A stretch of DNA of 64,000 bases from Candidatus Palauibacter polyketidifaciens (GTDB taxonomy: Bacteria; Gemmatimonadota; Gemmatimonadetes; Palauibacterales; Palauibacteraceae): the NCBI RefSeq assembly GCF_947581785.1, contig NZ_CANPVO010000006.1, positions 37,326 to 101,325 of the forward strand. Reading direction: 5' to 3'. Positions 9,045 through 53,968 of this stretch are shown here, piece by piece. The notes beneath the pieces are model-generated. The model saw only the letters and a list, made by a program, of their open reading frames with translations, had not been told where the DNA came from and ran no database searches. A program made the position numbers and the translations under genes. Position 1 is the stretch's first letter. Each line of letters opens with the position of its first letter.

Positions 9045-9071
9045 CGTGACGCCCTGCCCGAGGCGGCGCCG

Positions 9072-10040: not shown

Positions 10041-10077
10041 CCGCCCGGGAGCGCGCCCCGCAGAACAGGAGCCCCCC

Positions 10078-36048: not shown

Positions 36049-37596
36049 ATGGATAGCATTCCTTACGTGACAGCTTGTACGACGGTGTTCACGACCGAAT
36101 CGGCGCACGCCCGAAAGGTTGTATTCGGGATATGCGCGGTTCTGCTCGCCGTGGGGATCGCGGCGTGCGGGGACGGGAGCACGGACCTTCCTCTGACGCA
36201 CGCTCCGAGGGCCGTCGGCGCGCTTCCCGACCTCGAACTTCCCGTGGGTGAGACGGCGCTGGTGGAGGTGACGGGCCTCTTCAGCGATGCGGACGGGGAT
36301 GTGCTTTCCTATGAGGTTCGGTCTTCGGCCCCCGACGTGGTCGCGGCGGAGGTGTCGGGCGGCACCGTGCGGCTGGTCGCCCTGGCGCGCGGGATGGCTA
36401 CGGTGACCGTCACGGCGCGCGATCCCCAAGGCCGGGCCGTCGCCCTCCGGTTCGAGGTCACCGTACCGAACGTGGCGCCGGTAACGATTGGCGCGATCCC
36501 CGATGTCGAACTTCGGGTCGGAAGTGCGGAGCTGCTCGCCGTATCGGGCTTCTTCTCCGATCCGGACGGCGACGCGCTACGCTACGAAGCCACGTCGTCG
36601 CAGCCGGACGTGGCCGGGATCGACGTCTCGGCGGACACCGTCACGGTAACCGCCCTCGCGGCGGGAACGTCGACGGTGACCGTCGCGGCGCGCGACCCTG
36701 GCGGGCTGGGCGCCGAACTGTCGTTCGCCGTGGAGGTCCGACCGGGCCGCAGGTTCGACATCGAGGTCCGCTTCGACACCACGGCTGCCGAGCCGTGGCG
36801 GGCCCCGGTCCTCGCGGCGGCGGAACTGTGGATGTCGGTGCTGGCCGATACGGAACTGCTCGAGGTTGCGGTCGACGACCGCATTGAATGTTACGGCGCG
36901 AGCACGGCGGAGCCGGTCGGCACCATCGATGACCTGATGGTTCTCGTCGAGTTCCGGGAGATCGACGGTCCGGGCCGCACGCTCGCCCAGGCCGGCGTGT
37001 GCCGCCTGCGCGAAGGGTCAATGCTGCCGGTCGCGAGCGTGGCGTTCTTCGATGTGGCGGACATCGACCGGCTCATCGACTCCGGCGACGCGGTGGAACT
37101 CGCGGTTCACGAGATCGCGCACGCGCTCGGATTCGGCCTGCTGTGGCGCCCTCTCGGTCTCCTCCGGGATCCCTCCCTGGGCGTGGGAGCGATCGACGCG
37201 CATTTCGTGGGTCCCGGGGCCATCGCCGCCTTCGACGCGGCGGGCGGCACGGACTACACGGGCGGGGCGAAGGTCCCCGTCGAGAACCGCGGCGGAGCCG
37301 GGAGCGCGAACCTCCATTGGCGGGGCTCCGTCCTCCGGGGGGAACTCATGAGGCCGCTCAACAGGATCGGAGTCCGGGAGGCCCTCAGCGCGGTCACGAT
37401 CCGGTCGCTGGCCGACCTGGGTTACGCAGTCGACGCGAGCCAGGCGGAGCCGTACACGCTCCCCGGCGTTGGCGCCGCGGACGAGAAACCCGGCCGCGTG
37501 GTCGACCTGGGCGACGATGTCCTCAGGGGGCCGGTGCAGGTCGTCGATTCGGCCGGCCGCGTCGTGCGCGTGCTCCGCGACCGTTCGCCGGAGTAG
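36049..37596 (+). CDS. lipoprotein with two tandem Ig-like domains and a leishmanolysin-like (M8) zinc-metalloprotease domain
   Basis: Lipobox LAVGIAAC. Two domains of about 90 aa are homologous (PDLELPVGETALVEVTGLFSDADGDVLSYEV... and PDVELRVGSAELLAVSGFFSDPDGDALRYEA...). HEIAHALGFG is HExxHxxGF. Confidence 0.7.
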   Translation: MDSIPYVTACTTVFTTESAHARKVVFGICAVLLAVGIAACGDGSTDLPLTHAPRAVGALPDLELPVGETALVEVTGLFSDADGDVLSYEVRSSAPDVVAAEVSGGTVRLVALARGMATVTVTARDPQGRAVALRFEVTVPNVAPVTIGAIPDVELRVGSAELLAVSGFFSDPDGDALRYEATSSQPDVAGIDVSADTVTVTALAAGTSTVTVAARDPGGLGAELSFAVEVRPGRRFDIEVRFDTTAAEPWRAPVLAAAELWMSVLADTELLEVAVDDRIECYGASTAEPVGTIDDLMVLVEFREIDGPGRTLAQAGVCRLREGSMLPVASVAFFDVADIDRLIDSGDAVELAVHEIAHALGFGLLWRPLGLLRDPSLGVGAIDAHFVGPGAIAAFDAAGGTDYTGGAKVPVENRGGAGSANLHWRGSVLRGELMRPLNRIGVREALSAVTIRSLADLGYAVDASQAEPYTLPGVGAADEKPGRVVDLGDDVLRGPVQVVDSAGRVVRVLRDRSPE

Positions 37597-37607: not shown

Positions 37608-37637
37608 TTGACCGAACAAACCGCGGATTCCTATGCT
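37608..37637 (+). promoter_or_regulatory. candidate sigma-70-type promoter for the RND/P450/methyltransferase run
   Basis: TTGACC (37608-13), an 18-bp spacer, then TATGCT (37632-37), 38 nt upstream of the adaptor gene ATG. Consensus-based guess only. Confidence 0.3.
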
Positions 37638-37674: not shown

Positions 37675-38895
37675 ATGCTGCGCAGATTGCTGTTCGGATC
37701 CAGTCTCAGGATCATCGCCGTGATCATCGTCGGTACGATTGCGGTCGCGGCACTAATGCTCTCGCTCGCCCCCGAACCGGAGAGCCAGGAGCCGCCCCCC
37801 CAGATCCCGTTTGCGCAAACGGCCGGCGTTGTGGCCGGATCGGGCGCGATACCCGTGTTCGGATCCGGCACCGTGCGGCCAAGCGAGGAGATCGATGTCG
37901 CACCCCAGGTGGGCGGCAAGGTCGTCTGGGTCAATCCGCGGTTCCAGAGCGGAGGGCGCGTCGAGGCGGGCCAGACGCTCTTCCGCATCGAAGAAGCCGA
38001 CTACGCGTACCGCGTACAGGTAGCGGAAGCGAACGTCGCGGCAAGCCGCGTCGCCTTCCTCGAGGAACAGGAACGGGCGAAGATCGCCAGCGCCCAGTAT
38101 GAACTGTACTCGGAGCGGCGCGAGACGGGCCCCCCGCCGTCGGAGGCGAGTCCGCTCACATTGAGGGAGCCTCAGCTGGAAGCGGCCAGCGCCGCGCTGA
38201 GCCGGGACGAAGCCCGGCTTGAGGAGGCGAGGCTTGCGCTCTCCAGGACCCAGGTCACCGCGCCGTTCGATGGCTTCGTGCGCGAGGAGTCCGTCGATGC
38301 GGGGCAGGTCGTGAACCCCGGGCAGCCCGTCGGACGCCTCTTCGCTTCGGAGGCGGTGGAGGTCGTCGTTCCCCTCTCCGACGCCGACGCCGCCCTGGTC
38401 CCCGGATTGTGGGGGCTCGAGGCAGGCGACGGAGCACGGGACGTAGCGGCCCGTGTGATCGCCCACTACGGGGAGGTGATGTACGCCTGGGAGGGTTACG
38501 TGGATCGGGGTGAGAGTTCCGTTGACGCGCAGACACGCACCATCGACGTGATCGTGCGCGTGCCGGACCCGTTCGACCCAAGCGCGCGGGCGGGCCCGTC
38601 CGCCGCGGTCGGGAGCGATCCTCCGTTGCTGGTCGGCAAGTTCGTGGAGGTGGAGATCGAGGGACTCTCACCGGAGGACTACTTCCGGATCCCGCGAGCG
38701 GCGCTGCAACCTGGCAACGAAATCTGGACGGTTGACCGCGACGGCGTCGTGAACATCGTTCCGGTTCAGGTGCTGCAACGCGCCAACGATGCAGTGTTCG
38801 TCACCGGTGCCCTGCGAGGCGGCCAGTCGGTAGTCACCGGTGGACTTCAGTTCGCCACCGAAGGGATGCGCGTCCAGACCGACCCGGCGCGATGA
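37675..38895 (+). CDS. efflux RND transporter periplasmic adaptor (membrane fusion protein)
   Basis: N-terminal TM segment. GTVRPSEEIDVAPQVGGKV and the coiled-coil region VAEANVAASRVAF...L..A...L....V.APFDG are HlyD/MFP-like. Confidence 0.9.
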   Translation: MLRRLLFGSSLRIIAVIIVGTIAVAALMLSLAPEPESQEPPPQIPFAQTAGVVAGSGAIPVFGSGTVRPSEEIDVAPQVGGKVVWVNPRFQSGGRVEAGQTLFRIEEADYAYRVQVAEANVAASRVAFLEEQERAKIASAQYELYSERRETGPPPSEASPLTLREPQLEAASAALSRDEARLEEARLALSRTQVTAPFDGFVREESVDAGQVVNPGQPVGRLFASEAVEVVVPLSDADAALVPGLWGLEAGDGARDVAARVIAHYGEVMYAWEGYVDRGESSVDAQTRTIDVIVRVPDPFDPSARAGPSAAVGSDPPLLVGKFVEVEIEGLSPEDYFRIPRAALQPGNEIWTVDRDGVVNIVPVQVLQRANDAVFVTGALRGGQSVVTGGLQFATEGMRVQTDPAR

Positions 38896-41800
38896 ATCCC
38901 GACGCGGGTCCCGAACCGGACGACCGCCGCGAGCGGTCCGGCCCGCTCGCCTACATGGCCAGCAACGGCATCGCGGCCAATCTCCTGATGATGGGCATCG
39001 TTGCGGCCGGACTCGTGGCCCTGACCGGCCTCGAGCGAGAAGCCTGGCCCATCACCCCCTTCTACCACATCGAAGTCTCGATGGCCTATCCCGGCGCCAC
39101 GCCGGAGGAGATCGAGGAGTCGATCATCGTCAAGATCGAGGACCAGGTCAGCGGGCTCGATGACGTGAGGGCTGTCAAGTCCCTGGCGGCTCCGGGCATT
39201 GCCTCCGTGCGGATCCAGATGGATTCCCGCACGGACATGGCTCGGGCCCTGGACGACATCGAATCCGCCGTCAATCGTGTCCAGTCCTTCCCGGCCGGAG
39301 CCGAACGTCCGCGTTTCCAGGAGATGGACAACCGCTTCAGCATGATGCGGCTCATCGTCCACGGCGACGTCTCCGAGCGCTCGCTGAAGGAACTGGCGCA
39401 TCGGATCGAGGACGACCTTGCCGCGCTACCCTCCGTCTCCCAGGTCGAGGTCAGCGGGGTCCGGAACTACGAGATCTCCATCGAGGTATCGCTTCACCGG
39501 CTCAGAGCCCTGGGACTCTCTCTCACCGACGTTGCCGGGGCGATCCGCCGCAGTTCGCTCGACCTGTCGGCCGGAAGCATCGACACGCGGGAATCCCAGG
39601 TTCGAGTGCGGACCCTCGGGCAGAACTACGACCAGCAGGACTTCGAGGAAATCGTCCTTCTCAGCGGCCGCGACGGCACGGTCGTGCGCCTCGGCGACAT
39701 TGCCGAGGTCCGCGACGGGTTCCAGGAGGCAGACCTGATCGTCCGCCATCAGGACCAGCCCGCCGTATTCGTCGAGGTTTACCGGGCCGGTGGCGAGCAG
39801 GTGATGGATGTGGCCACGACCGTCCGTCGGCACCTGGCGAACGAGGTGATCCCGGCCTTGCCGGACAGCGTGGGCATCACCCTGTGGAACGACGAGTCCC
39901 AGGCCTACGAGGAGCGCGCCGATCTTCTTCTGAAGAACGGATTTCTGGGTTTGTTGCTGGTGTTGGTCGCACTGAGCCTGTTTCTACAGGTTCGGCTTGC
40001 CCTGTGGGTCGCCGTGGGCCTCGCCGTTTCGGGTGTAGGCGCCCTCGCCGCCATGATGGCGTTCGACGTGGCGATCAACACCATCAGCCTCTTCTCCTTT
40101 GTCCTCGCCATTGGGATCGTCGTTGACGACGCCATCGTTGTGGCCGAGCACATTCAACACGAACGCAATCAGGGAACCCCCGGGGTCGCGGCCGCGATCC
40201 GCGGCGTCCGGCGGATCAAGGTGCCGTTGACGTTCGCCGTCCTCACCTCGGTGGTGGCTTTCGTCCCGTTGTTGTTCATCCCGGGCGGTGTCGGTGACGT
40301 GTGGCGGGCCCTGCCGATCATCATGATCGCCATGCTGCTGTTTTCGCTGGTGGAATCGCTGTTCGTCCTGCCGAACCACCTGTCCCACCTGCCCGGTCCG
40401 GAATGGGTGCCGGGCAATGCCTTCGACCGATTCTTCTCGCGACTCCAGAGTCGTGTCGACGCCCAATTGCAGCGGTTCATCCAGGGGCCCTTGGACCGGG
40501 CACTGCGGTTTGCCACGGCCCGGCCCGGGGTGACGATGACGGGGGCCGTTGCAATGCTCGTGCTGAGCATTTCCCTGTTGCCCGCGGGAATCGTCCCCAC
40601 CACGCTGGCCGACGACGTGGAGGGCGATATCGTGACGGTCGTGTTGGAGATGCCCGATGGGGCCACCGCTCCGAGAACGTACGAGGTCGCCCGGGAGCTG
40701 GAGGCCGCGGGCCACCGGGTCATCGAACAACTCTCTCGAAGCCGGCCCGCGGACGCGCCGCCGCTGCTAACCGGCGTCACCGTGACCGTCGGACTGGGAT
40801 CGAGAATCGAGGGCGGACTCAACCCGCAGCCCACCCTCAATCCGCAGGCCAATATCGCCACCATCGAGTTCAAGCTCCTCGGTGCGCAGCAGAGACGGAT
40901 CTCCACCGGAGAAGTCGTGCAGGCGTGGCGCGAGGAGGTGGGTGTGCTGCCCTACGTCCGCGGCATCACCTTCAGCGGCGAGATCTTCACCCTGGGGAAC
41001 CCGGTCGAGGTCGTACTGTCGCACCCGGACCCGGAGCGGCTCGCCGGGATCGCCGGCTCGGTGGTCGACGGACTCCGCAGCGTGAGAGGCGTCTACGACA
41101 TACGGTCGGATCACGCCCCGGGGATCCCGGAAGTTCAGCTGGAGTTGCGGCCCGAGGCGCGGACCCTCGGTCTCACCGTGCAGGAGTTGGCGGGACAGGC
41201 GAGGGCCGCGTTCTTCGGCGCGGAAGCCGTCCGGGTGCAGCGCGGCCGGGAAGAGGTACGAGTCTATGTTCGGCTGCCCGCGGAAGAACGAAACTCGATT
41301 ACCGATATCGAAGGCTACCTGCTCCGTACGCCGGGCGGGGACGAGGTGCCGATGGTCAGTGTGGCGTCGCTGGTCCCGGGCGTTTCGCCATCGGCCCTCC
41401 GGCGCAGGGACGGCCAGCGCGTCGTCACCGTCACCGCCGATGTGGACGCCTCGGTGATCTCAGGCGACGAAGCCAACGAGATCCTGGCCGGTTCGATCCT
41501 CGCGGACCTGGCCGCGGCGTACCCGGGCCTCACATACACGTTCGGGGGCGAGCAGCAGCAGCAGCTGGAGTCGATCGACGCGCTGTACCGCGGCTTCGCG
41601 GTCGCTCTGATCCTGATTTTCGCGCTCCTCGCCATCCCCCTCCGTTCATATACCAAGCCGTTCATCATCATGGCCGTCATCCCCTTCGGGTTCATCGGCG
41701 TGATCCTGGGCCACTGGATCCTGGGAGTAGCTCTGAGCGCCGTCTCCTTCATGGGGATCTTCGGTCTGAGCGGCGTGGTGGTGAACGATTCCCTGGTCAT

Positions 41801-42098
41801 GATCGACTTCATCGATCAGAAACTCCGGGAGGGCGTCCCGCCGCGAACCGCGATCATGGAGGGGGCAAAAGGGCGTTTTCGTCCGATCATGCTCACTTCC
41901 CTGACCACGTTCCTCGGCTTCACCCCCCTGATCCTGGAGCGCGCCATCCAGGCCCAATTCCTGATTCCGTTTGCCGCGTCACTCGGTTGCGGCATTCTCT
42001 TCATCACGGCCATACTCATGATGGTAGTTCCGGCGCTATGCACGTTGCATCTGCGCTTGATGCCGTCGCGGCGTCCTTCGATTCCGAACGCCGCGTAG
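38892..42098 (+). CDS. efflux RND transporter permease (AcrB/HAE-type, 1068 aa)
   Basis: ATGA overlap with the adaptor gene. Twelve-TM RND layout with two large periplasmic loops. GIVVDDAIVVAEHI and VVNDSLVMIDF are the conserved TM4/TM10 motifs. Confidence 0.9.
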   Translation: MNPDAGPEPDDRRERSGPLAYMASNGIAANLLMMGIVAAGLVALTGLEREAWPITPFYHIEVSMAYPGATPEEIEESIIVKIEDQVSGLDDVRAVKSLAAPGIASVRIQMDSRTDMARALDDIESAVNRVQSFPAGAERPRFQEMDNRFSMMRLIVHGDVSERSLKELAHRIEDDLAALPSVSQVEVSGVRNYEISIEVSLHRLRALGLSLTDVAGAIRRSSLDLSAGSIDTRESQVRVRTLGQNYDQQDFEEIVLLSGRDGTVVRLGDIAEVRDGFQEADLIVRHQDQPAVFVEVYRAGGEQVMDVATTVRRHLANEVIPALPDSVGITLWNDESQAYEERADLLLKNGFLGLLLVLVALSLFLQVRLALWVAVGLAVSGVGALAAMMAFDVAINTISLFSFVLAIGIVVDDAIVVAEHIQHERNQGTPGVAAAIRGVRRIKVPLTFAVLTSVVAFVPLLFIPGGVGDVWRALPIIMIAMLLFSLVESLFVLPNHLSHLPGPEWVPGNAFDRFFSRLQSRVDAQLQRFIQGPLDRALRFATARPGVTMTGAVAMLVLSISLLPAGIVPTTLADDVEGDIVTVVLEMPDGATAPRTYEVARELEAAGHRVIEQLSRSRPADAPPLLTGVTVTVGLGSRIEGGLNPQPTLNPQANIATIEFKLLGAQQRRISTGEVVQAWREEVGVLPYVRGITFSGEIFTLGNPVEVVLSHPDPERLAGIAGSVVDGLRSVRGVYDIRSDHAPGIPEVQLELRPEARTLGLTVQELAGQARAAFFGAEAVRVQRGREEVRVYVRLPAEERNSITDIEGYLLRTPGGDEVPMVSVASLVPGVSPSALRRRDGQRVVTVTADVDASVISGDEANEILAGSILADLAAAYPGLTYTFGGEQQQQLESIDALYRGFAVALILIFALLAIPLRSYTKPFIIMAVIPFGFIGVILGHWILGVALSAVSFMGIFGLSGVVVNDSLVMIDFIDQKLREGVPPRTAIMEGAKGRFRPIMLTSLTTFLGFTPLILERAIQAQFLIPFAASLGCGILFITAILMMVVPALCTLHLRLMPSRRPSIPNAA

Positions 42099-42132
42099 TG
42101 CACGTCGACCGCGGCAAGGCGAGAACCGACGA

Positions 42133-44160
42133 ATGACGGTGGAGAGTCTGAAGGTCGAATCCCTGAGCCTCGTCGACGAACTCATCCTGATGCTTCTCGA
42201 CGAGAAGGGAGGCTACTTCCATCAGGTCCCCGGCTGGCAACTGAACTGCGCCGTGGTCGGCGGGGTGCTGGCGGAACTCTCCTTCCGGTCGCGGCTCGAC
42301 TCGGACCTGACATCCCTGTACGTGGTGGACCGGGACGAAACGGGCGATCCCGTCCTGGATCCCATTCTGAAGGAGATCGCGGACGAACCGGTCCAACGCA
42401 CGGCCCGGTACTGGGTCGAACGGCTCGCCCCCCGCGCGGAGTCGGTCGTCGACCTGACCTTGGATCGCCTGGTTCAACGGGGGATCCTCCAACACCACGA
42501 CGGGGAATTCTGGACGCTGGCTCCCCCCGTCATGCATCGGCAGCAGTACGGGATGTTCGAGGAAGACGCGACCGACCAGTTCATCAAGGCGCGCATCGGC
42601 AACGTCATCTTCGCCGACGAGGTTCCCGAACCGAGAGACGTCGTCATCGTCTGCCTCGTCAACACCTGCGACGTCTTTCGCCTGATCTTCGAACTCGATG
42701 AAGCGGCGGAAGAGCGCATCAAGTGGATATGCCAGCTGGACCTGATCGGCCGGTCCATCGCCGCTGCGGTCTCCGAGAACCTCGTCGGCCCGATTCGCAG
42801 ACATGCTCCTCTCGCCAAGAAGATTCCGACGGTTTCGCTGACTAGGCTGCTGCGCAACCCGCATGTCCGAGACGGCAACCTGAACGCGCTCTTCGGAAGC
42901 CTCGCGGAGGAGTACGGTCCGGTGTTCCAGATCCGGCCTCCCTTCTCGGAGCGCATGATCTTCCTGGCCGGACTCGAGACGAATGAATGGATGCAGAAGC
43001 GCGGGCGCATGTACCTGAGAACCAGGGACTACTTCGCCGACTTCGAGAAGGTCTACGGCGCGGCCGGCGTTCTGCCCGCCCTTGACGGGACCGACCACTT
43101 CCGGCTTCGCAAGTTCCTGTCGCCGGCCTATTCCCGCACGAGGCTGGCGGGGCAGCTGGACGAGCTCTACAGCAGGGGGCGAGCGTACATGTCGACGCTG
43201 GCGGTCGGGGATTCGTACCGCGCCACGTCCATGAGCCGGGCAATGGTGAACGCCCAGCTATCGCCGCTGTTCATCGGCGTCGACACGCAGGATCTCATGG
43301 GCGACCTGATGGTCTATAAGGAGCGGGCCCTCAGCGTGCATATTGCCAGGGTCCTGCCCGAGTTCACGCTGCATACCCCGGGTATGAGACGTCGGGCGGC
43401 CGTCCTGGAGACGCTGATGAAGCGGATCTTGAGCGTCCATACTCCGGCCCAACGCGTGGACAGCCAACGGAACCTGGTGGACGACTACCTCAGCCTGCAT
43501 GCCAGCGACCCGCAGTTTCTCCCGGAGTCCAACCTGCTCTTCGCTTTTTCCGCGGCCCTGATTGCCAGCGTGTACCTCGGTGACACGTTCAGCCTCGTCG
43601 TCTACGCCATGGCGTCGCAGCCCGCGCTCTACGAGAGGATCCGCGCCGAAGCGGACGCGCTGTTTGCCAGCGGTGACCCCGAAAAAGAGGACTTCACCCC
43701 GGCCAACATCGACGTGACGCATCGCTTCCTCATGGAGTGCATGCGCATGTACCCGATCGTGCCCATGTCTGTTCGGAACGTGATGAATACCTGCACGGTC
43801 GAGAACTACGAGTTACCCCTGGGGGAACGGATCCACATCGCCATGACCGCCACGCACTACATGAGCGACGTCTTTCCCGAACCCCACAAGTTTGACATCG
43901 ACCGCTTCCTGCCGTCGCGCCGTGAGCATCATAGCCTCGGGTTCGCCCCGTACGGGCTGGGTACGCACAAGTGTCTCGGCACCCGCTGGATGGAGATGCA
44001 CCTGGCGGCCAACCTGTTGATGCTGGCGCACTACTTCACGATCGAGGTGTCGCCGGCGAAATACGCCCGGAAGCTCCGCTTCAATCCGGTTCCGTCGCTG
44101 AAGCCGAGCAAGAAGGTCAGGTTCCGCATTACCGAGCAGAGGCGGGAGCTGCCCGCCTGA
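42133..44160 (+). CDS. fusion protein: N-terminal GPP34/GOLPH3-family domain + C-terminal cytochrome P450
   Basis: Residues about 10-215 read LSLVDELILMLLDEKGGYF....LNCAVVGGVLAELSFRSRL....TGDPVLDPILKEIA...RTARYWVERL....LDRLVQRGIL, which is the GPP34 pattern. The C-terminal region has ExxR (ECMR) and the heme loop FAPYGLGTHKCLG (Cys codon 43972-74). Confidence 0.85.
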   Translation: MTVESLKVESLSLVDELILMLLDEKGGYFHQVPGWQLNCAVVGGVLAELSFRSRLDSDLTSLYVVDRDETGDPVLDPILKEIADEPVQRTARYWVERLAPRAESVVDLTLDRLVQRGILQHHDGEFWTLAPPVMHRQQYGMFEEDATDQFIKARIGNVIFADEVPEPRDVVIVCLVNTCDVFRLIFELDEAAEERIKWICQLDLIGRSIAAAVSENLVGPIRRHAPLAKKIPTVSLTRLLRNPHVRDGNLNALFGSLAEEYGPVFQIRPPFSERMIFLAGLETNEWMQKRGRMYLRTRDYFADFEKVYGAAGVLPALDGTDHFRLRKFLSPAYSRTRLAGQLDELYSRGRAYMSTLAVGDSYRATSMSRAMVNAQLSPLFIGVDTQDLMGDLMVYKERALSVHIARVLPEFTLHTPGMRRRAAVLETLMKRILSVHTPAQRVDSQRNLVDDYLSLHASDPQFLPESNLLFAFSAALIASVYLGDTFSLVVYAMASQPALYERIRAEADALFASGDPEKEDFTPANIDVTHRFLMECMRMYPIVPMSVRNVMNTCTVENYELPLGERIHIAMTATHYMSDVFPEPHKFDIDRFLPSRREHHSLGFAPYGLGTHKCLGTRWMEMHLAANLLMLAHYFTIEVSPAKYARKLRFNPVPSLKPSKKVRFRITEQRRELPA

Positions 44161-44171
44161 GCCCCCCCGAT

Positions 44172-45203
44172 TTGCGACTGGGCAAACTGTCGAAAGCGCT
44201 GCGGGATGCGCACCCGGGATCGGGCGTCGCGCGTCGAGTCCGGCACTTTGACGGCTGGCTTGAGCGGGCGGCATCGGAGGCTGCCGGCGCCGGCACCTAC
44301 GACCACGCGGAAACGGTCAGGGACTACTACGAGCTGTGCAACGGTTTCATGGTGTACGGCTGGGGCGAATCCCTGCATTTTGCGCCCCTCACGCCCGACG
44401 AAAGCCTGGAGGAGTCCAAGGTCCGGCACCAGCGGGCGATGATCTCCAGGTTGAAGCTGGAACAGGGCATGAAGGTGGTCGACGTCGGTTGTGGAATCGG
44501 CGGCCCCATGCGCCGAGTCGCCCGTGAGGCGGGCGTCAGGGTCGTGGGAATCAACATCAATGACATCCAGCTCGCGGAGGCGAAGAAGTTGAACGCCGAG
44601 GCGGGGCTGGAGCACATGACCGATTTCAGGAAGTGCAGCTTCGAGGATATGAGCGCCATCGAGGCCGACACCTTCGATGGGGGTTACGCGATAGAGTCGA
44701 CGTGCCATGCGCAGGACAAGCGACGCGCGTTCGCGGAGATATTCCGCATACTGAAGCCGGGCGCCCTGTTCTGGGGTCAGGAAATGTGCCTGACGGACCG
44801 GTTCGATCCCGGGAATGCCCGGCACCGGACCATCAAGCGGGAGCTCATGCGCGGTATTGCGCTGCACGACATCGCCACGTTCGGGGAAGTGAACCGCGCT
44901 CTCGAAGGGGCGGGATTCCAGGTCATCGAGGGGAGTGATTGGGAGGTCCGGGAAGGACCCGCCACCCCGTGGTATCAACCCATGGAGAGTCGGCACGGGA
45001 CGTTGGGGACTGCGGTGCGCAGGCTTCCCCGGGGCCGCAAGGCGTTCATCGCGGGGTCGAAGTTGGCCGAGGTACTGCGGTTCTTTCCGAGGGGCTCGGC
45101 GGAGGTGGTTCGGCTCCTTGATCGAACCGCGGAGGCTTACGTCGAGGGCGGCAGGACGGGCATCTTCACGCCCCTGTACTGTTTCCTGGCCCGCAAGCTC
45201 TAG
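44172..45203 (+). CDS. sterol C-24 methyltransferase-like (ERG6/SMT family) SAM-dependent methyltransferase
   Basis: YYELCNGFMVYGWGESLHFAP, VVDVGCGIGGP, YAIESTCHAQ, LKPGALF, PWYQPM and FTPLYCFLARK align block-for-block with what I recall of yeast ERG6 (YYNVVTDFYEYGWGSSFHF, LDVGCGVGGP, YAIEATCHAP, IPWYYPL, LFTPMMLFVARK). The start is TTG 44172, or CTG 44157 overlapping the P450 stop. Confidence 0.85.
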   Translation: MRLGKLSKALRDAHPGSGVARRVRHFDGWLERAASEAAGAGTYDHAETVRDYYELCNGFMVYGWGESLHFAPLTPDESLEESKVRHQRAMISRLKLEQGMKVVDVGCGIGGPMRRVAREAGVRVVGININDIQLAEAKKLNAEAGLEHMTDFRKCSFEDMSAIEADTFDGGYAIESTCHAQDKRRAFAEIFRILKPGALFWGQEMCLTDRFDPGNARHRTIKRELMRGIALHDIATFGEVNRALEGAGFQVIEGSDWEVREGPATPWYQPMESRHGTLGTAVRRLPRGRKAFIAGSKLAEVLRFFPRGSAEVVRLLDRTAEAYVEGGRTGIFTPLYCFLARKL

Positions 45204-45216
45204 CAGCCAGGGGCTG

Positions 45217-46260
45217 CTAGTCGGCGTTGCGGTCCGGGCTTCGCGGCGCCGGCGCCGGGTCCGGATAGAACTGTCGGCAGTGTCGGCGGTACTTCCCGAT
45301 GGGGCCGTCCGTCCGGCAAAGCCGGGGGGGAGACCGGTAGCGCTTCCTGTCCCATATCACGATGTCCTGCAGTACGAACCGCCTCTCCTCGCGGAGGATG
45401 AAGAAATTCAGCAGCCGGTGGCGCAGCGGCACGGGTAGAAAGCCCAGACCCGATATGAACCGCCCCGGTTTCCGGATCTCCCGCACCTGGTTGACCATCG
45501 TCAACTCCACGAATTCGCCGTCGACGGGCGTTGTGAGCACCCACATGCGCGACCTCACGCCGACCGACTTCTCGTGAATCTCGACGAAGGAGTAGCCGAG
45601 TCCGTGGACGTGCGTGACGACCGAGACTTCGGAATGAATGTCCACCAGACCAAGGATCCGGCGAACCGCCTTGAAGTCGAAACAGCTCCTCAGGTAGGCG
45701 CCGTCGGTCGAAAAGTCGGTCGGCTCCACATCGTGGTAGCCATGCGTGTACTCCAGGTGTTCCACGTCGACCGAGTTCTCCGTCGTCTCCTGGGGATGCC
45801 CTCGGAACCGCAGGATCGTGGAGCGCAAACCGGTCCACTCCGCGCCGGCGGGTGGCTCATCCGGCAGGTGCCATTGAGGGCCTCGGCCACCGCTCCCCCA
45901 CCAGGCGAAGATCATGCCGAGGATCTCCCGGGTCTCGTAGAGCTTCAGCTTCGCGGCCTTCGGAGGCGGAGCATTGGGCGTGGCCACGCACTGGCCGGTC
46001 GTGTCGAACTCGAACCCGTGAAACGGACAGACGAGGCAGCCGTCGCGCACCAGACCGCCCGTGGTCGGTCCCATATGCGAGCCCAGGTGCGGACAGAAGG
46101 CGTCCGCCACGCAGATGCGGCCCTCGTCGTCGGCCCAGGCGACGATCTCCTCGCCCATCCACGTCTTCTCGATGAGCTTCGCGCGCTCGATGGACGTGCG
46201 GCGTCCGATGAAATACCAGCCTTCGGGAAACGGCGGCAGCGCATCGCTGTACGTAGCCAT
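45217..46260 (-). CDS. Rieske [2Fe-2S] non-heme-iron oxygenase, Neverland/DAF-36- or KshA/SdmA-like
   Basis: CPHLGSHMGPTTGGLVRDGCLVCPFHGFEF is the Rieske centre. ENSVDVEHLEYTH matches the mononuclear iron motif Ex3Dx2Hx4H. Confidence 0.85.
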   Translation of the reverse strand: MATYSDALPPFPEGWYFIGRRTSIERAKLIEKTWMGEEIVAWADDEGRICVADAFCPHLGSHMGPTTGGLVRDGCLVCPFHGFEFDTTGQCVATPNAPPPKAAKLKLYETREILGMIFAWWGSGGRGPQWHLPDEPPAGAEWTGLRSTILRFRGHPQETTENSVDVEHLEYTHGYHDVEPTDFSTDGAYLRSCFDFKAVRRILGLVDIHSEVSVVTHVHGLGYSFVEIHEKSVGVRSRMWVLTTPVDGEFVELTMVNQVREIRKPGRFISGLGFLPVPLRHRLLNFFILREERRFVLQDIVIWDRKRYRSPPRLCRTDGPIGKYRRHCRQFYPDPAPAPRSPDRNAD

Positions 46261-46362
46261 GCGGGCGAACTTGGTTTCGGTCCCGCTGGCGCGTCAACTA
46301 GTGTACACTCGTGCGGTGGCGGCCGGCCGGAAACGGATCTTGAGAAAGCGAGGACTACGGTG

Positions 46363-48969
46363 ATGACTCTGGACTCTGCGCCGCGCGTCTCGGTTCTCAT
46401 GCTCTTCGCCGCGATGGCCGCCGGCCTGCCGGCGAACGGCTCCGGCCAGACCGCCGCCGAGGTTCCGCGCTTCGAGATCGCGTCGTCGCCGATCGAACTC
46501 ACGGGACCCGTCCGTCCCGGCGAGTACCTGGGCGTGACCGGACCCCGGTCCGCGTGGCTCGGCCTCGAGACCGGGGAGGCGGAGCTGTGGGTCCACCCCC
46601 TCAAGGTCGGAAACCGGTTTCGGCTCGGCTTCTCGACCCCGGCCTACGGCGCGCCGATTCCCGGTAGCGCCGTCGCGCGCACGGTGCATGTCCGGCCCGA
46701 ACTGACGACGATCGCCTACAGCCACGCGGCCTTTCAGGTGCGCCAGCACATCCTTGCGCCCGCCGAACTCCCCGGCCTCCTGGTTCTGCTCGAGGTGGAC
46801 AGCCCCGAACCACTCGAGATCATCGCCGAGTTCGAGCCGGTGCTGAACTACATGTGGCCGGGTTCGCTGGGGGGGCAGTACGCCTACTGGGACGGCGGCC
46901 GGCGCGCCTTCGTGCTGTCCGAGAGCCTGCAGGAGACGAACGCCGTCGTCGGGTCGCCGTGGGCCGTCAACTCGGTCGAACACCCGGCGCATCAACTGGG
47001 CGAAGCGCCGCGCACCATGGTGATCCCGGTCGAGCCGGAACGCGCCCGACGGGAGTTCATCCCCATCGCCGTAGCGGGCGGCACCATGCCCCGCGAGGAG
47101 GTCTTCGCCAGCTACGATCGGCTGATCGCCGAGGCCCACTCGCTGTACGGCGCGAAACGGGCATGGGCCGACTCGGTGCTCGCCTCCACCGTCTCCATCG
47201 AGTCGCCGGATCCACAGCTCGACCTCGCCCTCGAGTGGGCGAAGATCAACCTGGAGGAGCAGCGCGTCTGCAATCCCGACCTCGGCTGCGGGTTCGTCGC
47301 GGGCTGGGGCCTGTCGCGCAACGGAACCCGTCCCGGATTCGGATGGTTCTTCGGCGGCGACGCGGCGCAGACGACCTTCGCCATGGATGTGCTCGGGCAG
47401 TGGGGGGTGGTGGCGGAGGAACTCGCCTTTCTCGCGAGATACCAGCGTGAAGACGGGAAGATCACGCACGAAATCTCTCAGGCGGCCGCGCGCATCCCGT
47501 GGTTCGAGGTGTATCCGTACGCCTACTACCACGCGGACACCACGCCCTACTGGATGGTCGCGCTGTACGAATACTGGCGGGCGAGCGGGGACGACGAACT
47601 GCTGCGGGAGCTGTGGCCGGCCTACCGGCGCGCGTGGGAATGGTGCCTCGGCGCCGAGACCGACGGCGACGGAATCATCGAAAACACGGTGGGCGGGCTC
47701 GCAGCGGTCGAGGTCGGGGGCCTCGGGGCGGCGCTCCACCAGGACGTCTACCTGGCAGGGGTTTGGACCGCGGCCCTCGAGGGGACCGCGGCGCTGGCGG
47801 AGCGCATGGGCGAACCCGGGATGGCGAATCGGGCTCGGGAGATGGCTCCCCGCGCGCGGAAGACGCTGAACGACGCGTACTGGCTCGAGGAGGCGGGGCA
47901 CCATGCCTTCGGGATCCTCGCCGATGGCGGCACCAACGACAATCTGACCGTGTGGCCCGCGACGGCGGCCGCGTTCGGCCTGTTCGACGAGGCGCGCGGG
48001 CGATCGACCCTCGCCCGGCTCGCGAGCGACCGGATCTCGTCGGACTGGGGCGCCCACATGCTCTCGACGGAGAGCGAACTGTATCACCCGCTCCAGTACA
48101 ACATGGGTTCGGTGTGGCCCTTCGTGACGGCGTACGTGTCGTGGGCCCAGTACCGGTACCGGCGTCCATGGGCGGGCTTCCACCTCGTGGACGCGGTGAA
48201 GCAGATGACCTTCGACTGGAGCCTAGGACGCCATCCGGAGTTGCTGTCCGGAACGTTCTACCAGCCCCTCGACCAGACCGTCCCGCACCAGTTCTTCGCG
48301 ACTTCGGCCCTGGTGACACCGTTACTGCGCGGCGTCATCGGCTGGGAGCCCGATGCGCCGCTGGACCGCGTGCGCCTCGCCCCGCAACTCCCGCCGGATT
48401 GGCCGGCCGTGACGGTGAGACGGCTCCGAGCCGGGGAAACGGCGACGGACGTGGAGATCCGACAACGGTGGACGGCCGAAGGCGGGGAGCGACGGACGAC
48501 GCTCACGACCACGGGGCCTGCGCTGACATTCGCCTTCGTACCCGACGTGCCGGCGGGCGCGCGGGACGTGTCCATCGGCGTGAACGGGGCAGTCACCGAA
48601 CTCACCGAGGATGGAACGGTGGAGGTGACGCTGGGCGAGACCGTCGCCGCCGGCGACCGCGCGGAAATCGTCGTGACGTGGGGCGGCGGGCTCGCGATCG
48701 CGCCGCCCCGGATCGACTTGGAGCCCGGTCAAGTGAGCAGCGGCCTGCGCATCCTCGACTTCAACGCAGATCCGGATGGCTGGCTTCTCGAAGTGGAGGG
48801 ACTGGCGGGTCGGAGCTACGACCTCGGACTCTTCGGCGCCACGGTCGAAGCTGACGTCGTGCAAGGGGCCGCAACGACCGCTCTGGCCAACCCCGCGACC
48901 GTACGTATTGCGTTTCCTCCGGACACTGCGGAACGCACGACAGCTGTGGTTCGTTTCACGACCCCGTAG
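46363..48969 (+). CDS. secreted (alpha/alpha)6-barrel glycoside hydrolase, amylo-alpha-1,6-glucosidase (GDE_C)-like
   Basis: Trimmed to ATG 46363 (GTG 46360 is also possible), with GAAAGCGAGGA upstream. It has a signal peptide. GFGWFFGGDAAQTTFAM resembles the PWF..WFGRD motif of GDE_C-type enzymes. Confidence 0.65.
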   Translation: MTLDSAPRVSVLMLFAAMAAGLPANGSGQTAAEVPRFEIASSPIELTGPVRPGEYLGVTGPRSAWLGLETGEAELWVHPLKVGNRFRLGFSTPAYGAPIPGSAVARTVHVRPELTTIAYSHAAFQVRQHILAPAELPGLLVLLEVDSPEPLEIIAEFEPVLNYMWPGSLGGQYAYWDGGRRAFVLSESLQETNAVVGSPWAVNSVEHPAHQLGEAPRTMVIPVEPERARREFIPIAVAGGTMPREEVFASYDRLIAEAHSLYGAKRAWADSVLASTVSIESPDPQLDLALEWAKINLEEQRVCNPDLGCGFVAGWGLSRNGTRPGFGWFFGGDAAQTTFAMDVLGQWGVVAEELAFLARYQREDGKITHEISQAAARIPWFEVYPYAYYHADTTPYWMVALYEYWRASGDDELLRELWPAYRRAWEWCLGAETDGDGIIENTVGGLAAVEVGGLGAALHQDVYLAGVWTAALEGTAALAERMGEPGMANRAREMAPRARKTLNDAYWLEEAGHHAFGILADGGTNDNLTVWPATAAAFGLFDEARGRSTLARLASDRISSDWGAHMLSTESELYHPLQYNMGSVWPFVTAYVSWAQYRYRRPWAGFHLVDAVKQMTFDWSLGRHPELLSGTFYQPLDQTVPHQFFATSALVTPLLRGVIGWEPDAPLDRVRLAPQLPPDWPAVTVRRLRAGETATDVEIRQRWTAEGGERRTTLTTTGPALTFAFVPDVPAGARDVSIGVNGAVTELTEDGTVEVTLGETVAAGDRAEIVVTWGGGLAIAPPRIDLEPGQVSSGLRILDFNADPDGWLLEVEGLAGRSYDLGLFGATVEADVVQGAATTALANPATVRIAFPPDTAERTTAVVRFTTP

Positions 48970-49234: not shown

Positions 49235-50389
49235 TCAGTCGGCCAGTACTTCCGTCAGCGTATCCGCCACCTCGTCGATCTGCGCTTCGGTGATCACGAG
49301 CGGCGGCAGCAGCCGGATGACCGTGGTGCCGGCCGGGAGGGCGAGGACGCCCCGCTCCGCGAGAGCTCCCAGGTAGGGTCGGCAGCGCTCGCGGAGTTCG
49401 ACGCCGATCATGAGGCCGACCTGCCGCACGGCGCGGACGCGAGCCGACTGGCGTCGGGCGAAACGCTCGCTGAAGCGGGCGCCAAGCGCCTCCGCCCGAT
49501 CGTCGAGCCGCTCATCCCGCATGAAGCGGATCGCGGCCAGGGCGGCGGCGCTGGCGAGCGGGTTGCCGCCGAAGGTCGTGCCGTGCCGCCCGGGCGGCGG
49601 CTGCAGCCGTTCATGCGCCAGGACCGCTCCCAGCGGCACGCCGCCCGCGATCGCCTTCGCGAGGCAGAGCACGTCCGGCGCGACGCCGTAGCGGTCGCAG
49701 GCGAACATGCGGCCGGTGCGGCAGAAGCCCGTCTGGATCTCGTCGAACACGAGGACCGCACCGGCCTCGTCGCAGATGCGGCGCGCCGCCGACAGATAGT
49801 CCCGGCTGGCCGGCCGCACCCCGCCTTCTCCCTGTACCGGTTCGATGATCACCGCCGCCGTGTCCGCGCCCACGGCCGCGCGCAGCTTCTCCACGTGGTT
49901 GAACGGCACGAACGAGAACCCCGGCACGAGCGGCTCGAACGGCTCCCGGTACTCCTTCTTGTGCGTTGCGCTCAGCGCTCCCAGCGTGCGCCCATGGAAG
50001 CCGCGCATTGCGGACACGACCCCCGCCCGTCCCGTCGCGAGGCGCGCGAACTTGATCGCCGCCTCCACCGCCTCCGCCCCGGAATTGCAGAGGAAGGCGC
50101 GCGTGAGCCCCGCCGGCGCGATCGACACGAGTTCGGCCAGCAACCGCGCCCGGACATCGTTGTAGAAGATCCCGGGACAGGACACGAGCACCCGAGCCTG
50201 CTCCGCCAACGCTTCGGCGACGGCCGGGTTGGCGTGGCCGATGCTCGCCACGCCGATGCCGCCCACGCAATCGATGTAGCGGCGACCCTCGTCGTCCCAC
50301 ACGCACGCGCCCTCGCCCCGCACGATGGTGAGGTCCCGCTTGGGGAAGACCTCGAGGGCGTACGCCCGTTCCAGTTCGCGCGCGTTCAT
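49235..50389 (-). CDS. lysJ: acetylornithine/[LysW]-aminoadipate-semialdehyde aminotransferase (class III PLP)
   Basis: VWDDEGRRYIDCVGGIGV, NSGAEAVEAAIKFAR, DEIQTGFCRTG and AKAIAGG (the PLP-binding Lys). It sits in the lysW cluster. Confidence 0.85.
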   Translation of the reverse strand: MNARELERAYALEVFPKRDLTIVRGEGACVWDDEGRRYIDCVGGIGVASIGHANPAVAEALAEQARVLVSCPGIFYNDVRARLLAELVSIAPAGLTRAFLCNSGAEAVEAAIKFARLATGRAGVVSAMRGFHGRTLGALSATHKKEYREPFEPLVPGFSFVPFNHVEKLRAAVGADTAAVIIEPVQGEGGVRPASRDYLSAARRICDEAGAVLVFDEIQTGFCRTGRMFACDRYGVAPDVLCLAKAIAGGVPLGAVLAHERLQPPPGRHGTTFGGNPLASAAALAAIRFMRDERLDDRAEALGARFSERFARRQSARVRAVRQVGLMIGVELRERCRPYLGALAERGVLALPAGTTVIRLLPPLVITEAQIDEVADTLTEVLAD

Positions 50390-50393
50390 CCAA

Positions 50394-51230
50394 TCATCCG
50401 ATCACCGTGCCCCGCCCCGCCAGCGCCTCCCCGACCGGCCGTTCAATGCGCCCATCCGCGATCACGACGCGCGTCGTGCCGGATTCCACGAGTCGCCGCA
50501 GGGCGAGCAGCTTCCGCTTCATGCGCCCGGAAACATCGTCCTCCCGACGTGCAAGCTCCCCACGCGAGAGCCGTGCGACGACGGACGCCGGATCGTCCGG
50601 ATCTTCGAGGAAACCGGGCGCCTCGATCAACTGGATCACGCAATCCGCGCCCAGTTCGGCGCTGAGCAGGGTCACGACGTCATCGTTCTCCGAGTTGATC
50701 GCCACGTTGTGTTCGTCGATGAGGGGCACGGTCACGACCGGAGTGAAGCCGCCGTCGAGGAGCAACCCCATCAGCTTGCGGTTCACCTCCGCCGGCTTCC
50801 CGGACAGGTCCCGCCTGATCAGCGTCTTGCCGCCCTCTCTCACCCGGATACCCCTGTTGCGGCGGCCGCGCACGAGCGCGCCGTCGAGCCCCGTGAGCCC
50901 GACCGCGTTTACGCCGTGGCCCTGCAGCAGTTCCACGATGCGCTTGTTCCGCACGCCGGCGTAGGCCATGAGCATCACGTCGATCAGGTCGTGGTCGGAC
51001 TGCACGCTCTCGTGCCCGGACACCGATGTGAGGACGCGTTTTCCGACCCCGAGCCGCCGGGCCAGCGAATCGCGCAGCGCGTTCGCGCCGTGCACGATGA
51101 CGAACGGACCGGACAGGCCCGCCAGGTCGCGGGCAATCCCGTCCAGGTTGATCGATTCGCCGCCGCCGATCTTGACGATGAGCAGCCCGCCGGACTCGCC
51201 CGGCCTCGGTTCGGGTGTCGGTCCCGGCAT
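50394..51230 (-). CDS. lysZ: [LysW]-aminoadipate/glutamate kinase (acetylglutamate kinase family)
   Basis: LIVKIGGG...VIVHGA...GLTG.DG....NADDV-like NSENDDV are amino acid kinase fold motifs. It sits in the lysW cluster. Confidence 0.8.
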   Translation of the reverse strand: MPGPTPEPRPGESGGLLIVKIGGGESINLDGIARDLAGLSGPFVIVHGANALRDSLARRLGVGKRVLTSVSGHESVQSDHDLIDVMLMAYAGVRNKRIVELLQGHGVNAVGLTGLDGALVRGRRNRGIRVREGGKTLIRRDLSGKPAEVNRKLMGLLLDGGFTPVVTVPLIDEHNVAINSENDDVVTLLSAELGADCVIQLIEAPGFLEDPDDPASVVARLSRGELARREDDVSGRMKRKLLALRRLVESGTTRVVIADGRIERPVGEALAGRGTVIG

Positions 51231-51233
51231 CGG

Positions 51234-51914
51234 TCAGAACGTCCCGATGGCGCCGTTCGCGACCGGCGTCCACGCCCACCGCCCGTCCGACGGCGGACAG
51301 GAAGCCGGATAGGGCGCCGAGCACAGGATCCGCACGCCGTTCCGCCGGGCGGCATGCATCCGGAAGTAGGCCGGGTCCTCGTTGAACCGGGTCGCGAAGT
51401 GGACCCGGCGCGACGCGTCGGCGATGATCAGATTCATTGCCCGCACGTAACGCGTGCGCTTCTCGATCGCGTCGAGTCCCCGCTCCAGCGCGAGACCCAT
51501 GTCTACGTTGCCGTCCCCGCCGGCGAAGCGCTTGACGAAGTTGAACACCTTCTCCGCGCCGATCCGCCCCCGTTCCTTTATCCGCACTCCGTGCAGCTCC
51601 CCGTTGAAGATGAATGCGCGTTCCCCGTCGAAGAACGGCATGTTGTTCTCGACCCGTATCCCTTCCCCGCGATACGCGCTCCTCGCGTGCGCGAGCAGAA
51701 GCGTCGTGCGTCCGGGCGGCGCCGCGGCGTCCTCCCACACCGGCGAGACGTTGCGGTAGACGCGCCACCCGTCGGACCCGTCGGCATCGATCCAGGCACA
51801 CCCCCACCCGTCACCCTGATACTCGGGACTCTCTCGGGCGAGCTGCGCGAAGGCGGCGAGGTGCGGCTCCATGTCGAAGGGCTCGTCGCTGCGGACGCAG
51901 AGGATGCGGCACAC
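51234..51914 (-). CDS. class II (Ntn) glutamine amidotransferase domain protein
   Basis: MCRIL has the N-terminal nucleophile Cys2. LLAHARSA, NNMPF and FIFNGEL are typical of GATase_4/YafJ-like proteins. Confidence 0.65.
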   Translation of the reverse strand: MCRILCVRSDEPFDMEPHLAAFAQLARESPEYQGDGWGCAWIDADGSDGWRVYRNVSPVWEDAAAPPGRTTLLLAHARSAYRGEGIRVENNMPFFDGERAFIFNGELHGVRIKERGRIGAEKVFNFVKRFAGGDGNVDMGLALERGLDAIEKRTRYVRAMNLIIADASRRVHFATRFNEDPAYFRMHAARRNGVRILCSAPYPASCPPSDGRWAWTPVANGAIGTF

Positions 51915-51939
51915 GAGGATTCAGCTCCGCGTGTCGCGG

Positions 51940-53807: not shown

Positions 53808-53968
53808 TCGCCCCAGTCCTCCTCCGCGTCCGGCGCCTCTCCAAGGGTGATGGGGTCGAGCGCGAGGATCTCGAGCTCGACGCCGCACTCCTCACATTCG
53901 AGCAACTCACCTTCGACGGGGTCGTCGGAAATCGTCGGTTCCGCGCCGCATACAGGACATTCCGGCAT
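53804..53968 (-). CDS. lysW: amino-group carrier protein LysW (54 aa; not in ORF track)
   Basis: My translation is [54 protein letters not shown]. It has a zinc-ribbon CxxC...CxxC and the hallmark C-terminal EDWGE. GGAGG lies 9 nt upstream. Its stop overlaps the lysX ATG (ATGA). Confidence 0.85.

Follow-up and report, generated by a model that had tools for sequence, protein, structure and literature searches.

A divergent sterol methyltransferase-like enzyme in a mobile gene cassette of sponge and coral symbionts

Side-chain-alkylated steranes serve as biomarkers of eukaryotes and of sponges, a use that bacterial sterol methyltransferases (SMTs) already complicate. The locus described here raises the question of whether an SMT-like gene, at 44172–45203 (+) of a 64,000-nucleotide stretch of Candidatus Palauibacter polyketidifaciens DNA (hereafter the window), is a further case; an initial annotation had called its product an ERG6-like sterol C-24 methyltransferase acting on a delta-24 sterol or a related isoprenoid side chain, with a bearing on how 24-alkyl steranes are read. 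We find that the protein belongs to the SMT superfamily, but to a separate clade with altered pocket residues, and that its gene has moved between phyla in a cassette with oxygenase and efflux genes. With moderate confidence, we interpret it as a neofunctionalised SMT paralogue for a non-canonical steroid or triterpenoid, within a mobile oxidise–methylate–export cassette specific to sponge and coral symbionts.

The 343-codon open reading frame (ORF) is intact and free of stops, and begins with a TTG codon 11 nt past the stop of the upstream P450 gene. All five motifs quoted in the initial annotation are found in collinear order (Table 1), and the sterol-methyltransferase C-terminal domain it named is confirmed by a Pfam match far above chance (Sterol_MT_C, PF08498; E=1.2e-12, 48.2 bits against a gathering cut-off of 21.7); the active canonical SMT encoded at the Nitrospirales locus L048, discussed below, scores 80.4 bits. 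Methyltransf_11 is matched at 63 bits (E=3.5e-17). As a class I methyltransferase domain and the sterol-methyltransferase C-terminal domain are both present, the SMT part of the ERG6-like assignment stands, whilst its canonical delta-24, C-24 part is unsupported. A PDB sequence search returned no solved SMT, the best matches being generic class I methyltransferases (MitM, CMAS), and NCBIfam is without an SMT model, every match of the window protein falling far under its cut-off. The ratio of nonsynonymous to synonymous substitution rates (dN/dS) is 0.14–0.23 against eight orthologues, indicating that the gene is maintained by selection. Pseudogenisation or decay was rejected, given the intact ORF, the dN/dS of about 0.2 and the conservation of the clade signature.

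The statement that every block is present holds for the five motifs but not for Region I as a whole, which in the window protein is FMVYGWGESLHF and not the canonical FYEYGWGxSFHF. Residues were assigned ERG6 numbers by motif anchoring, and a site was taken as conserved where one residue occurs in at least 75% of a reference set of 106 canonical representatives. At such sites the window's clade has the fixed replacements T78N/S, Y81M, E82V, F89L, W225M and E246M, together with E to Q at window residue 87 and D to S at window residue 156. Y81, E82, W225 and E246 are each at least 79% conserved in the reference set, and the window protein has M, V, M and M in their place. Retained are the S-adenosylmethionine (SAM) loop (D125, G127, G129, G132 and P133), H90, F91, E195, G217, W286 and the C-terminal motifs. 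C-24 methylation requires cation–pi interactions with the Region I aromatics Y81EYGWG86 (Zhou et al., PMC6997595); the aromatic signature Y81-E-Y-G-W-G...F89-H-F is missing from the window protein, which keeps an aromatic residue at position 83. Brown and Welander (preprint 10.64898/2025.12.19.695621) found 25 residues that the functional SMTs share without exception, T78 and F89 among them; the window protein keeps 23 of these, the deviations being T78N and F89L.

Relative to canonical enzymes (ERG6 of yeast, SMT1/SMT2 of plants and the bacterial SMTs found to be active; PMC10070321), the window protein has a similar length (about 340 residues) and the same class I domain, Sterol_MT_C domain, GWG..HF core, DxGxGxxGP loop, E195, G217, W286 and FTP motif, at 33–44% identity (42–44% to canonical bacterial and plant SMTs, 33% to fungal ERG6). 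It differs in Region I, which is FMV[YW]GWGESLHF in its clade as opposed to FYE[YFW]GWGxSFHF (in extended form, Y[DE]LC[NSG]xFMV[YWF]GWGESLHF as opposed to Y[DN]L[VA]TDFYE[YFW]GWGxSFHF), and in Region IV, where LFWGQEM replaces F..YEW; unlike canonical SMT genes, those of the window's clade are usually unlinked to oxidosqualene cyclase (OSC), CYP51 and ERG24. We refer to the clade by its SLHF signature.

Among database proteins, the best 120 listed are 74–89% identical to the window protein, and the few with a named source are from metagenome-assembled genomes (MAGs) of Gemmatimonadota, Nitrospira and Gammaproteobacteria. A separate search covered 1.84 billion cluster representatives. In an unrooted neighbour-joining tree (118–121 sequences, with 325 columns for 118 taxa; a distance method only), the window protein and its close relatives occupy their own branch, apart from the 106 canonical representatives (bootstrap 100/100), which include a rice cycloartenol C-24 methyltransferase-like (SMT1-like) protein, a fungal ERG6 cluster, an algal SMT cluster, sponge-symbiont SMTs and the active Nitrospira '1 of 2' enzyme. 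On this distance tree, the protein lies outside the clade of characterised SMTs. Three rarer outliers from the representative search, P0121, P0123 and P0125, join the branch of the window's clade; they are 41–56% identical to the window protein and keep SLHF and LFW.QE, with GWN, GWD or AWS for GWG. They show that the core clade of sponge symbionts is only part of a divergent subfamily of greater age and breadth.

Orthologues of the window protein have been assayed. Locus L048 (JAAXIB010000027.1, 70077 bp) belongs to a MAG of Nitrospirales recovered from Porites lutea. The contig given for 'Nitrospira sp., coral reef 1 and 2' by Brown et al. 2023 (PMC10070321) has 70077 bp and 63 genes, and on it IMG 2682229279–270 correspond to a squalene monooxygenase (SMO)–OSC gene, ERG11, ERG24, sdmA, sdmB, SMT 1 of 2 (..274) and SMT 2 of 2 (..270). 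The 70077-bp match, the one-to-one gene order from 277 to 270 and the first residue L (TTG) identify the L048 SMT-like gene as IMG 2682229270. The protein 'Nitrospira ... 2 of 2 2682229270', with first residue L, appears in the 'No activity' block of Supplementary Figure 1 of the preprint (10.64898/2025.12.19.695621): it gave no product from desmosterol or 24-methylenecholesterol, in an assay system in which 23–24 other bacterial SMTs worked (Brown and Welander). The earlier study reports activity for 12 of its 14 environmental SMTs (Brown et al. 2023, PMC10070321); since the active blocks contain all twelve, Nitrospira 2 of 2 is left as inactive, along with the Beatty hot-spring SMT. A second locus, L050 (Nitrospira bin75, Aplysina aerophoba), encodes a protein 76% identical to that of the window and is syntenic with genes 16 to 9 of the A. 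aerophoba contig JGIcombinedJ30088_10000835, which assigns 'A. aerophoba 2 of 2' to the same clade; that protein tops the 'No activity' block (preprint 10.64898/2025.12.19.695621). Independently of that block, the invariance of T78 and F89 stated by the authors means that their functional set holds no protein bearing the SLHF signature.

The inference of C-24 SMT activity is hence contradicted by experiment for a close orthologue. With the pocket replacements, the separate clade, the inactive 75%-identical orthologue and no sterol-synthesis gene in the window, the delta-24 sterol substrate proposed at the outset is left unsupported. The suggested relevance to 24-alkyl steranes is likewise unsupported. 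The biomarker angle for bacterial SMTs had already been published (PMC10070321), and in that work this clade gave no 24-alkyl sterol.

The host is a sponge-associated Gemmatimonadota bacterium. Its high-GC, diderm character, read earlier from the letters, is borne out by a G+C content of 63–72% and by an alignment of more than 20 kb, at about 90% nucleotide identity, with Candidatus Palauibacter / Longimicrobiales MAGs (Gemmatimonadota, diderm); the window's DNA occurs in public 'sponge metagenome' runs, with up to 92% of sampled words present. Relatives of the SMT-like protein are present in at least 557 species genomes (one-genome-per-species GTDB contigs), and the neighbourhoods of the best 80 of these, at 70–93% identity, were compared (the 80 loci). 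Almost all are MAGs with isolate names of sponge or coral studies, and they span at least 11 phyla, with members in Gemmatimonadota, Acidobacteriota, Rhodothermales, Chloroflexota, Latescibacterota, Nitrospirota, Nitrospinota, Actinomycetota, Gammaproteobacteria, Verrucomicrobiota and Binatia. The Region I pattern [FILM][MLIT]x[YWFM][GSA]W[GSND][ED][SA]LHF is found in 71 of the 80 loci, most commonly as FMVWGWGESLHF, and a Region IV signature of the KPGALFWGQEMCLT type in 77.

The neighbouring genes recur with it. A fusion of a GPP34 domain with a cytochrome P450 lies within 10 kb of the SMT-like gene in 76 of the 80 loci and within 3 kb in 69, at a median gap of 57 bp; a Rieske gene resembling KshA is present in 71. 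The permease of a resistance-nodulation-division (RND) efflux pump occurs in 42 loci (68–96% identical; 88–91% in Acidobacteriota and Rhodothermales) and a copy of its periplasmic adaptor (membrane fusion protein, MFP) in 20 (61–96%). An FAD amine-oxidase / phytoene-desaturase-like gene, absent from the 64-kb window, is found in 38 loci and is 71–100% identical between them (for example L005 11095–12465, L009 12972–14474 and L048 5582–7432 (+)); the gene is often the fifth of the cassette, and its product may introduce a double bond into the substrate ahead of the methylation step. De novo sterol genes (OSC, CYP51, ERG24, sdmAB), by contrast, lie within 10 kb in only 5–7 of the 80 loci, nearly all of them Nitrospirales.

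The shared module extends over about 8.5 kb, and its proteins are 70–93% identical in sponge and coral symbionts. Nucleotide identity across phyla, at 71–91%, is confined to 37.7–46.25 kb of the window; a Latescibacterota locus, for example, aligns over 8.5 kb at 79%. The synonymous divergence (dS) of the SMT gene is 0.30 to an Acidobacteria copy and 0.31 to a congeneric Palauibacter copy, and G+C content dips at the cassette. Together, the confinement of homology to the module, the equal dS values and the G+C dip demonstrate recent transfer between phyla. Acidobacteria copies (L009, L016 and L017, compared with window 38929–46246) have the altered gene order RND-SMT-P450, with nucleotide identities of 89–91% for RND and SMT, 71% for the P450 fusion and 77–78% for the Rieske gene; these uneven identities and the changed order indicate a mosaic cassette, with recombination between variants. 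Contigs of a sponge metatranscriptome, which may include DNA, span the whole cassette and provide a weak indication that it is expressed.

Table 1. Positions of the cassette genes and SMT motifs in the window, and of the genes around the two SMTs of locus L048. Residue replacements follow ERG6 numbering.
Sequence	Feature	Position	Strand	Remarks
Window	Sigma-70-like promoter match TTGACC-18-TATGCT	37608..37637	+	Just upstream of first cassette gene; consensus match only, putative
Window	RND efflux periplasmic adaptor (MFP)	37675..38895	+	Pfam HlyD_3, HlyD_D23; TIGR01730 RND_mfp 161 bits; 4-nt overlap with RND gene
Window	AcrB-type RND efflux permease	38892..42098	+	Pfam ACR_tran 525 bits
Window	GPP34 (GOLPH3-like, aa 13-214) and cytochrome P450 (aa ~245-669) fusion, 'GPP34_L'	42133..44160	+	Pfam GPP34 103 bits, p450 116 bits
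Window	SMT-superfamily methyltransferase, divergent SLHF clade	44172..45203	+	343 aa, TTG start
Window	Region I YGWGESLHF	44355..44381	+	aa 62-70; preceded by NGFMV; T78N, Y81M, E82V, F89L
Window	Region II VDVGCGIGGP, SAM-binding loop	44478..44507	+	aa 103-112; canonical DxGxGxxGP retained
Window	Region III YAIESTCHA	44685..44711	+	aa 172-180; E195 equivalent retained
Window	Region IV KPGALFWGQEMCLTD	44754..44798	+	Canonical form KPGGxFxxYEWxxTD; W225M; Gln at position aligned to Y223
Window	PWYQPM motif	44967..44984	+	aa 266-271
Window	Sterol_MT_C domain	45033..45197	+	aa 288-342; Pfam 48.2 bits
Window	FTPLYCFLARK motif, C-terminal	45165..45197	+	aa 332-342
Window	Rieske [2Fe-2S] oxygenase, KshA-type catalytic domain	45217..46260	-	Pfam Rieske 59 bits, KshA_C 77 bits
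L048	ERG24	1308-2414		IMG ..277
L048	sdmA	2395-3522		IMG ..276
L048	sdmB	3515-4639		IMG ..275
L048	Canonical SMT (1 of 2)	4636-5670	-	IMG ..274
L048	Amine oxidase-like	5582-7432	+	IMG ..273
L048	Outer membrane protein (OMP)	7833-8729		IMG ..272
L048	KshA-like Rieske	8883-9908		IMG ..271
L048	SMT-like (2 of 2)	10001-11035		TTG start; 75% identical to window protein; IMG ..270

The window genes in the order MFP-RND-(GPP34-P450)-SMT are co-directional and tightly spaced, with the SMT-like gene last; the Rieske gene is convergent with it, their stop codons lying 13 nt apart, and no terminator-like site was seen between 38.1 and 46.5 kb. The P450 part of the fusion carries the heme motif GLGTHKCLG, and its best solved relatives are CYP51 and CYP120 (about 73 bits). 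It was rejected as a CYP51 orthologue, since its similarity to CYP51 structures stays at that level and no CYP51 helix-I signature was seen in its translation. For the Rieske protein, the best solved relatives are the KshA 3-ketosteroid 9alpha-hydroxylases (82 bits); identification as the C-4 demethylase SdmA was likewise rejected (NF052579 at 32 bits, compared with 415 bits for a true SdmA). It shares with KshA (PDB 4QDC, 2ZYL) the Rieske and KshA_C domains and the CxH...CxxH and DxxH(x4)H iron ligands, but the similarity is distant and limited to the N-terminal half, and no KshB reductase or steroid-degradation genes are found nearby. With CYP51 and KshA as closest solved relatives, the neighbours of the SMT-like gene have a steroid flavour.

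In the model that we favour, the gene product is a working SAM-dependent C-methyltransferase, and its cassette would take up a hydrophobic steroid or triterpenoid supplied by the host, by neighbouring symbionts or by the bacterium's own pathway. The P450, the Rieske enzyme or both would oxidise or desaturate it, joined in about half of the loci by the FAD amine-oxidase-like enzyme. The SMT-like enzyme would then add a methyl group, at neither delta-24(25) nor delta-24(28) of a desmosterol-type sterol but at another position or on another scaffold, and the RND pump would handle either substrate or product. The data show the family membership, the separate clade, the replaced residues, the gene linkage, the horizontal transfer, the purifying selection and, from published work, the inactivity of an orthologue on two delta-24 sterols; that the substrate is a steroid or triterpenoid, in which order the steps occur and what the pump does are inferred.

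Several observations weigh against this neofunctionalisation. The negative assays were made with orthologues in E. coli lysates and with two substrates only, so that false negatives are possible (through solubility, a missing partner or specificity for the sterol nucleus), and the window protein itself is known from its sequence. The status of 'A. aerophoba 2 of 2' is slightly ambiguous, as the inactive totals of the two papers differ by one. Besides the 23 of 25 functional-SMT residues, the aromatic residue of position 83 (Y83/W83) is kept. In Nitrospirales, only 4 kb separate the gene from a full set of de novo sterol genes that includes a canonical SMT, an adjacency that a second, ordinary side-chain methylation step would also fit. 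Finally, the steroid assignment of the P450 and Rieske proteins is based on distant similarity (~73–82 bits).

Much of this would suit a true delta-24 sterol C-24 (or C-28) methyltransferase with a narrow substrate preference, or a need for a membrane or a partner, for which the published negatives would be false negatives. Such an enzyme might prefer 4,4-dimethyl, delta-8 or cyclopropyl sterol nuclei, or one specific 24-alkylidene intermediate. Sterol_MT_C and most SMT motifs are present, and the Nitrospirales copies adjoin an SMO-OSC / CYP51 / ERG24 / sdmAB / canonical-SMT cluster. We nevertheless consider it unlikely: the orthologue was inactive on both substrates where 23–24 other bacterial SMTs worked, the cation–pi and acidic pocket residues are lost throughout a phylogenetically separate clade, and at least 73 of the 80 loci, like the 64-kb window, are without a nearby de novo sterol gene.

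The 64-kb window contains no squalene synthase, squalene epoxidase, OSC, CYP51, ERG24 or sdmAB, its remainder being housekeeping and transport genes. The cassettes of L048 and L050 resemble it in clade, TTG start, SLHF signature and GPP34-P450 and KshA-like Rieske neighbours; they differ in that their Nitrospirales hosts carry the full de novo sterol cluster beside the cassette, whereas in the Gemmatimonadota window the cassette adjoins the RND pump, and sterol genes are absent. For the fused SMO-OSC of L050, there are at least 521–566 relatives among species genomes, in sponge symbionts of many phyla and at ~70–90% identity, so the de novo sterol cluster looks to be horizontally mobile in the sponge habitat too; this spread agrees with the report of ERG24-CYP51-LSS clusters in 115 of 537 Ircinia MAGs (Kelly et al. 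2022). Fused genes of this kind were observed at L050 4360–8022, at L210 3885–7262 and in loci L081–L160 and L281–L360.

When a Gemmatimonadota OSC was used as query, only seven Gemmatimonadota genomes stood above other phyla among the matches listed; sponge Gemmatimonadota with a fused SMO-OSC therefore exist. None of the cassette-bearing Gemmatimonadota chromosomes, including closed genomes with cassette proteins 92–95% identical to those of the window, was among the OSC matches listed, which may further disfavour an ordinary C-24 SMT. This suggests, and does no more than suggest, that the window's lineage probably has no sterol pathway of its own, in which case the cassette would act on lipids of the host or community.

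A substrate that is not a steroid at all strikes us as improbable to much the same degree. The cassette might be a detoxification or resistance unit (oxygenases, then methyltransferase, then RND pump) directed against toxic sponge or symbiont metabolites, or its target might be a lipid of bacterial origin: a linear triterpene, for instance, or a carotenoid, or an acyl chain with a double bond. The AcrB-type multidrug pump has been co-transferred at up to 91% identity, the spread over at least 11 phyla is like that of a resistance gene, the linked FAD enzyme of 38 loci is of amine-oxidase / phytoene-desaturase type, and the top Pfam match of the methyltransferase core is CMAS. The Botryococcus braunii triterpene methyltransferases, which are algal SMT-like enzymes, methylate the non-sterol isoprenoid olefins squalene and botryococcene. 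A steroid-related substrate is nevertheless indicated by retention of the sterol-methyltransferase C-terminal domain and of the Region II/III architecture, by the steroid enzymes (SMT, CYP51 and KshA) that come closest to the three enzymes among characterised proteins, and by the Nitrospirales cassettes that abut a sterol cluster.

A narrower proposal, that the SLHF clade is a sponge-holobiont sterol methyltransferase for a position other than C-24, such as C-26 of delta-25 sterols or C-4 of 3-oxosteroids, has in our view a chance of only about one in ten. Precedent for altered regiochemistry, which counts in favour of the main model as well, exists: the nematode 4-SMT is an SMT homologue without the Region I aromatic signature that methylates C-4 of 3-oxosteroids (PMC6997595), and the STRM-type enzymes (C. 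elegans STRM-1 / 4-SMT, dinoflagellate BmSTRM) lack that signature and have changed regiochemistry (PMC6997595, PMC9136925). These are eukaryotic enzymes with a proven 3-oxosteroid substrate, and the window protein is likened to them by description only; it has lost Y81 and F89 and kept the aromatic of position 83. The one pointer to a 3-oxosteroid substrate is circumstantial, namely the KshA-like neighbour, whose family acts on 3-ketosteroids. Were the proposal correct, host sterols processed by the linked GPP34-P450 and Rieske enzymes would be the substrate; C-26 methylation of codisterol and other delta-25 sterols would lead to 26-methyl sterols of the aplysterol type, from which the 26-methylstigmastane 'sponge' biomarker derives, and symbionts of many phyla would shape diagnostic sponge sterols through a mobile cassette.

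Lastly, a loss of catalysis, after which the protein would serve the P450/Rieske system in an accessory or regulatory capacity by binding lipid or SAM, would accommodate the inactivity of the orthologue in vitro and the loss of conserved acidic pocket residues, but is very improbable, as D125, G127, G129, G132, P133, E195, H90 and W286 are all kept, purifying selection is strong and the pocket signature of the clade is conserved in 71–77 of the 80 loci; retained SAM motifs, selection and signature fit a changed active site better than a decayed one.

Bacterial SMTs with relevance to sterane biomarkers (PMC10070321) and GPP34-P450 fusions (PMC11706023) have already been published. A literature search found no description of the linkage between SMT-like, GPP34-P450, Rieske and RND genes, and the subfamily status and cassette linkage reported here appear to be new. 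The gene shows that annotation as 'sterol 24-C-methyltransferase' by Pfam domain alone over-calls function. With at least 557 species genomes, the SLHF type is among the commonest SMT-like genes of sponge microbiomes; as assays of its branch yielded no 24-alkyl sterols, such genes should be left out of any tally of the capacity for C-24 alkylation. The module is a concrete, testable candidate pathway for the modification or export of host steroids or terpenoids by symbionts.

The fusion upstream of the SMT-like gene has exactly the architecture of GPP34_L, and occurs in a sponge-associated bacterium; published work reports GPP34_L (GPP34 and P450) from sponge symbionts of many phyla and from no other bacteria, with a proposed role in binding phosphatidylinositol 4-phosphate (PI4P) and countering phagocytosis (PMC11706023). 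The words methyltransferase and sterol do not occur in that paper. On reading, the 42133–44160 protein has no obvious N-terminal signal peptide. This, together with its operon with the RND pump and the SMT-like gene, suggests a lipid-metabolic role, to which its operonic association with the SMT-like gene at 3 kb or less in 69 of the 80 loci also points. The module thereby offers an alternative, metabolic reading of GPP34_L proteins, now seen as phagocytosis effectors.

Other genes of the window were noted in passing. Directly upstream of the cassette, at 36049–37596 (+), lies a gene for a leishmanolysin-like (Peptidase_M8), eukaryote-like protease with bacterial Ig-like domains, whose position is conserved in Palauibacter MAGs. 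A Fic/DOC-domain protein of 394 residues is encoded close by at 34762–35946 (-) and is 91% identical in the Palauibacter genome L027. On the other side, a large GH116 / DUF608-like glycoside hydrolase gene (46354–48969, +) adjoins the Rieske gene; it is syntenic in Palauibacter relatives (84–89% identity) and lies outside the cross-phylum module. The genes at 49235–53910 (-), for a class III aminotransferase, an amino-acid kinase, a semialdehyde dehydrogenase and a LysX/RimK ATP-grasp protein, resemble a LysW-type lysine/arginine biosynthesis cluster. A TMEM164-family protein (54045–54749, -; 173 bits), unexpected in a bacterium, belongs to a family better known from eukaryotes.

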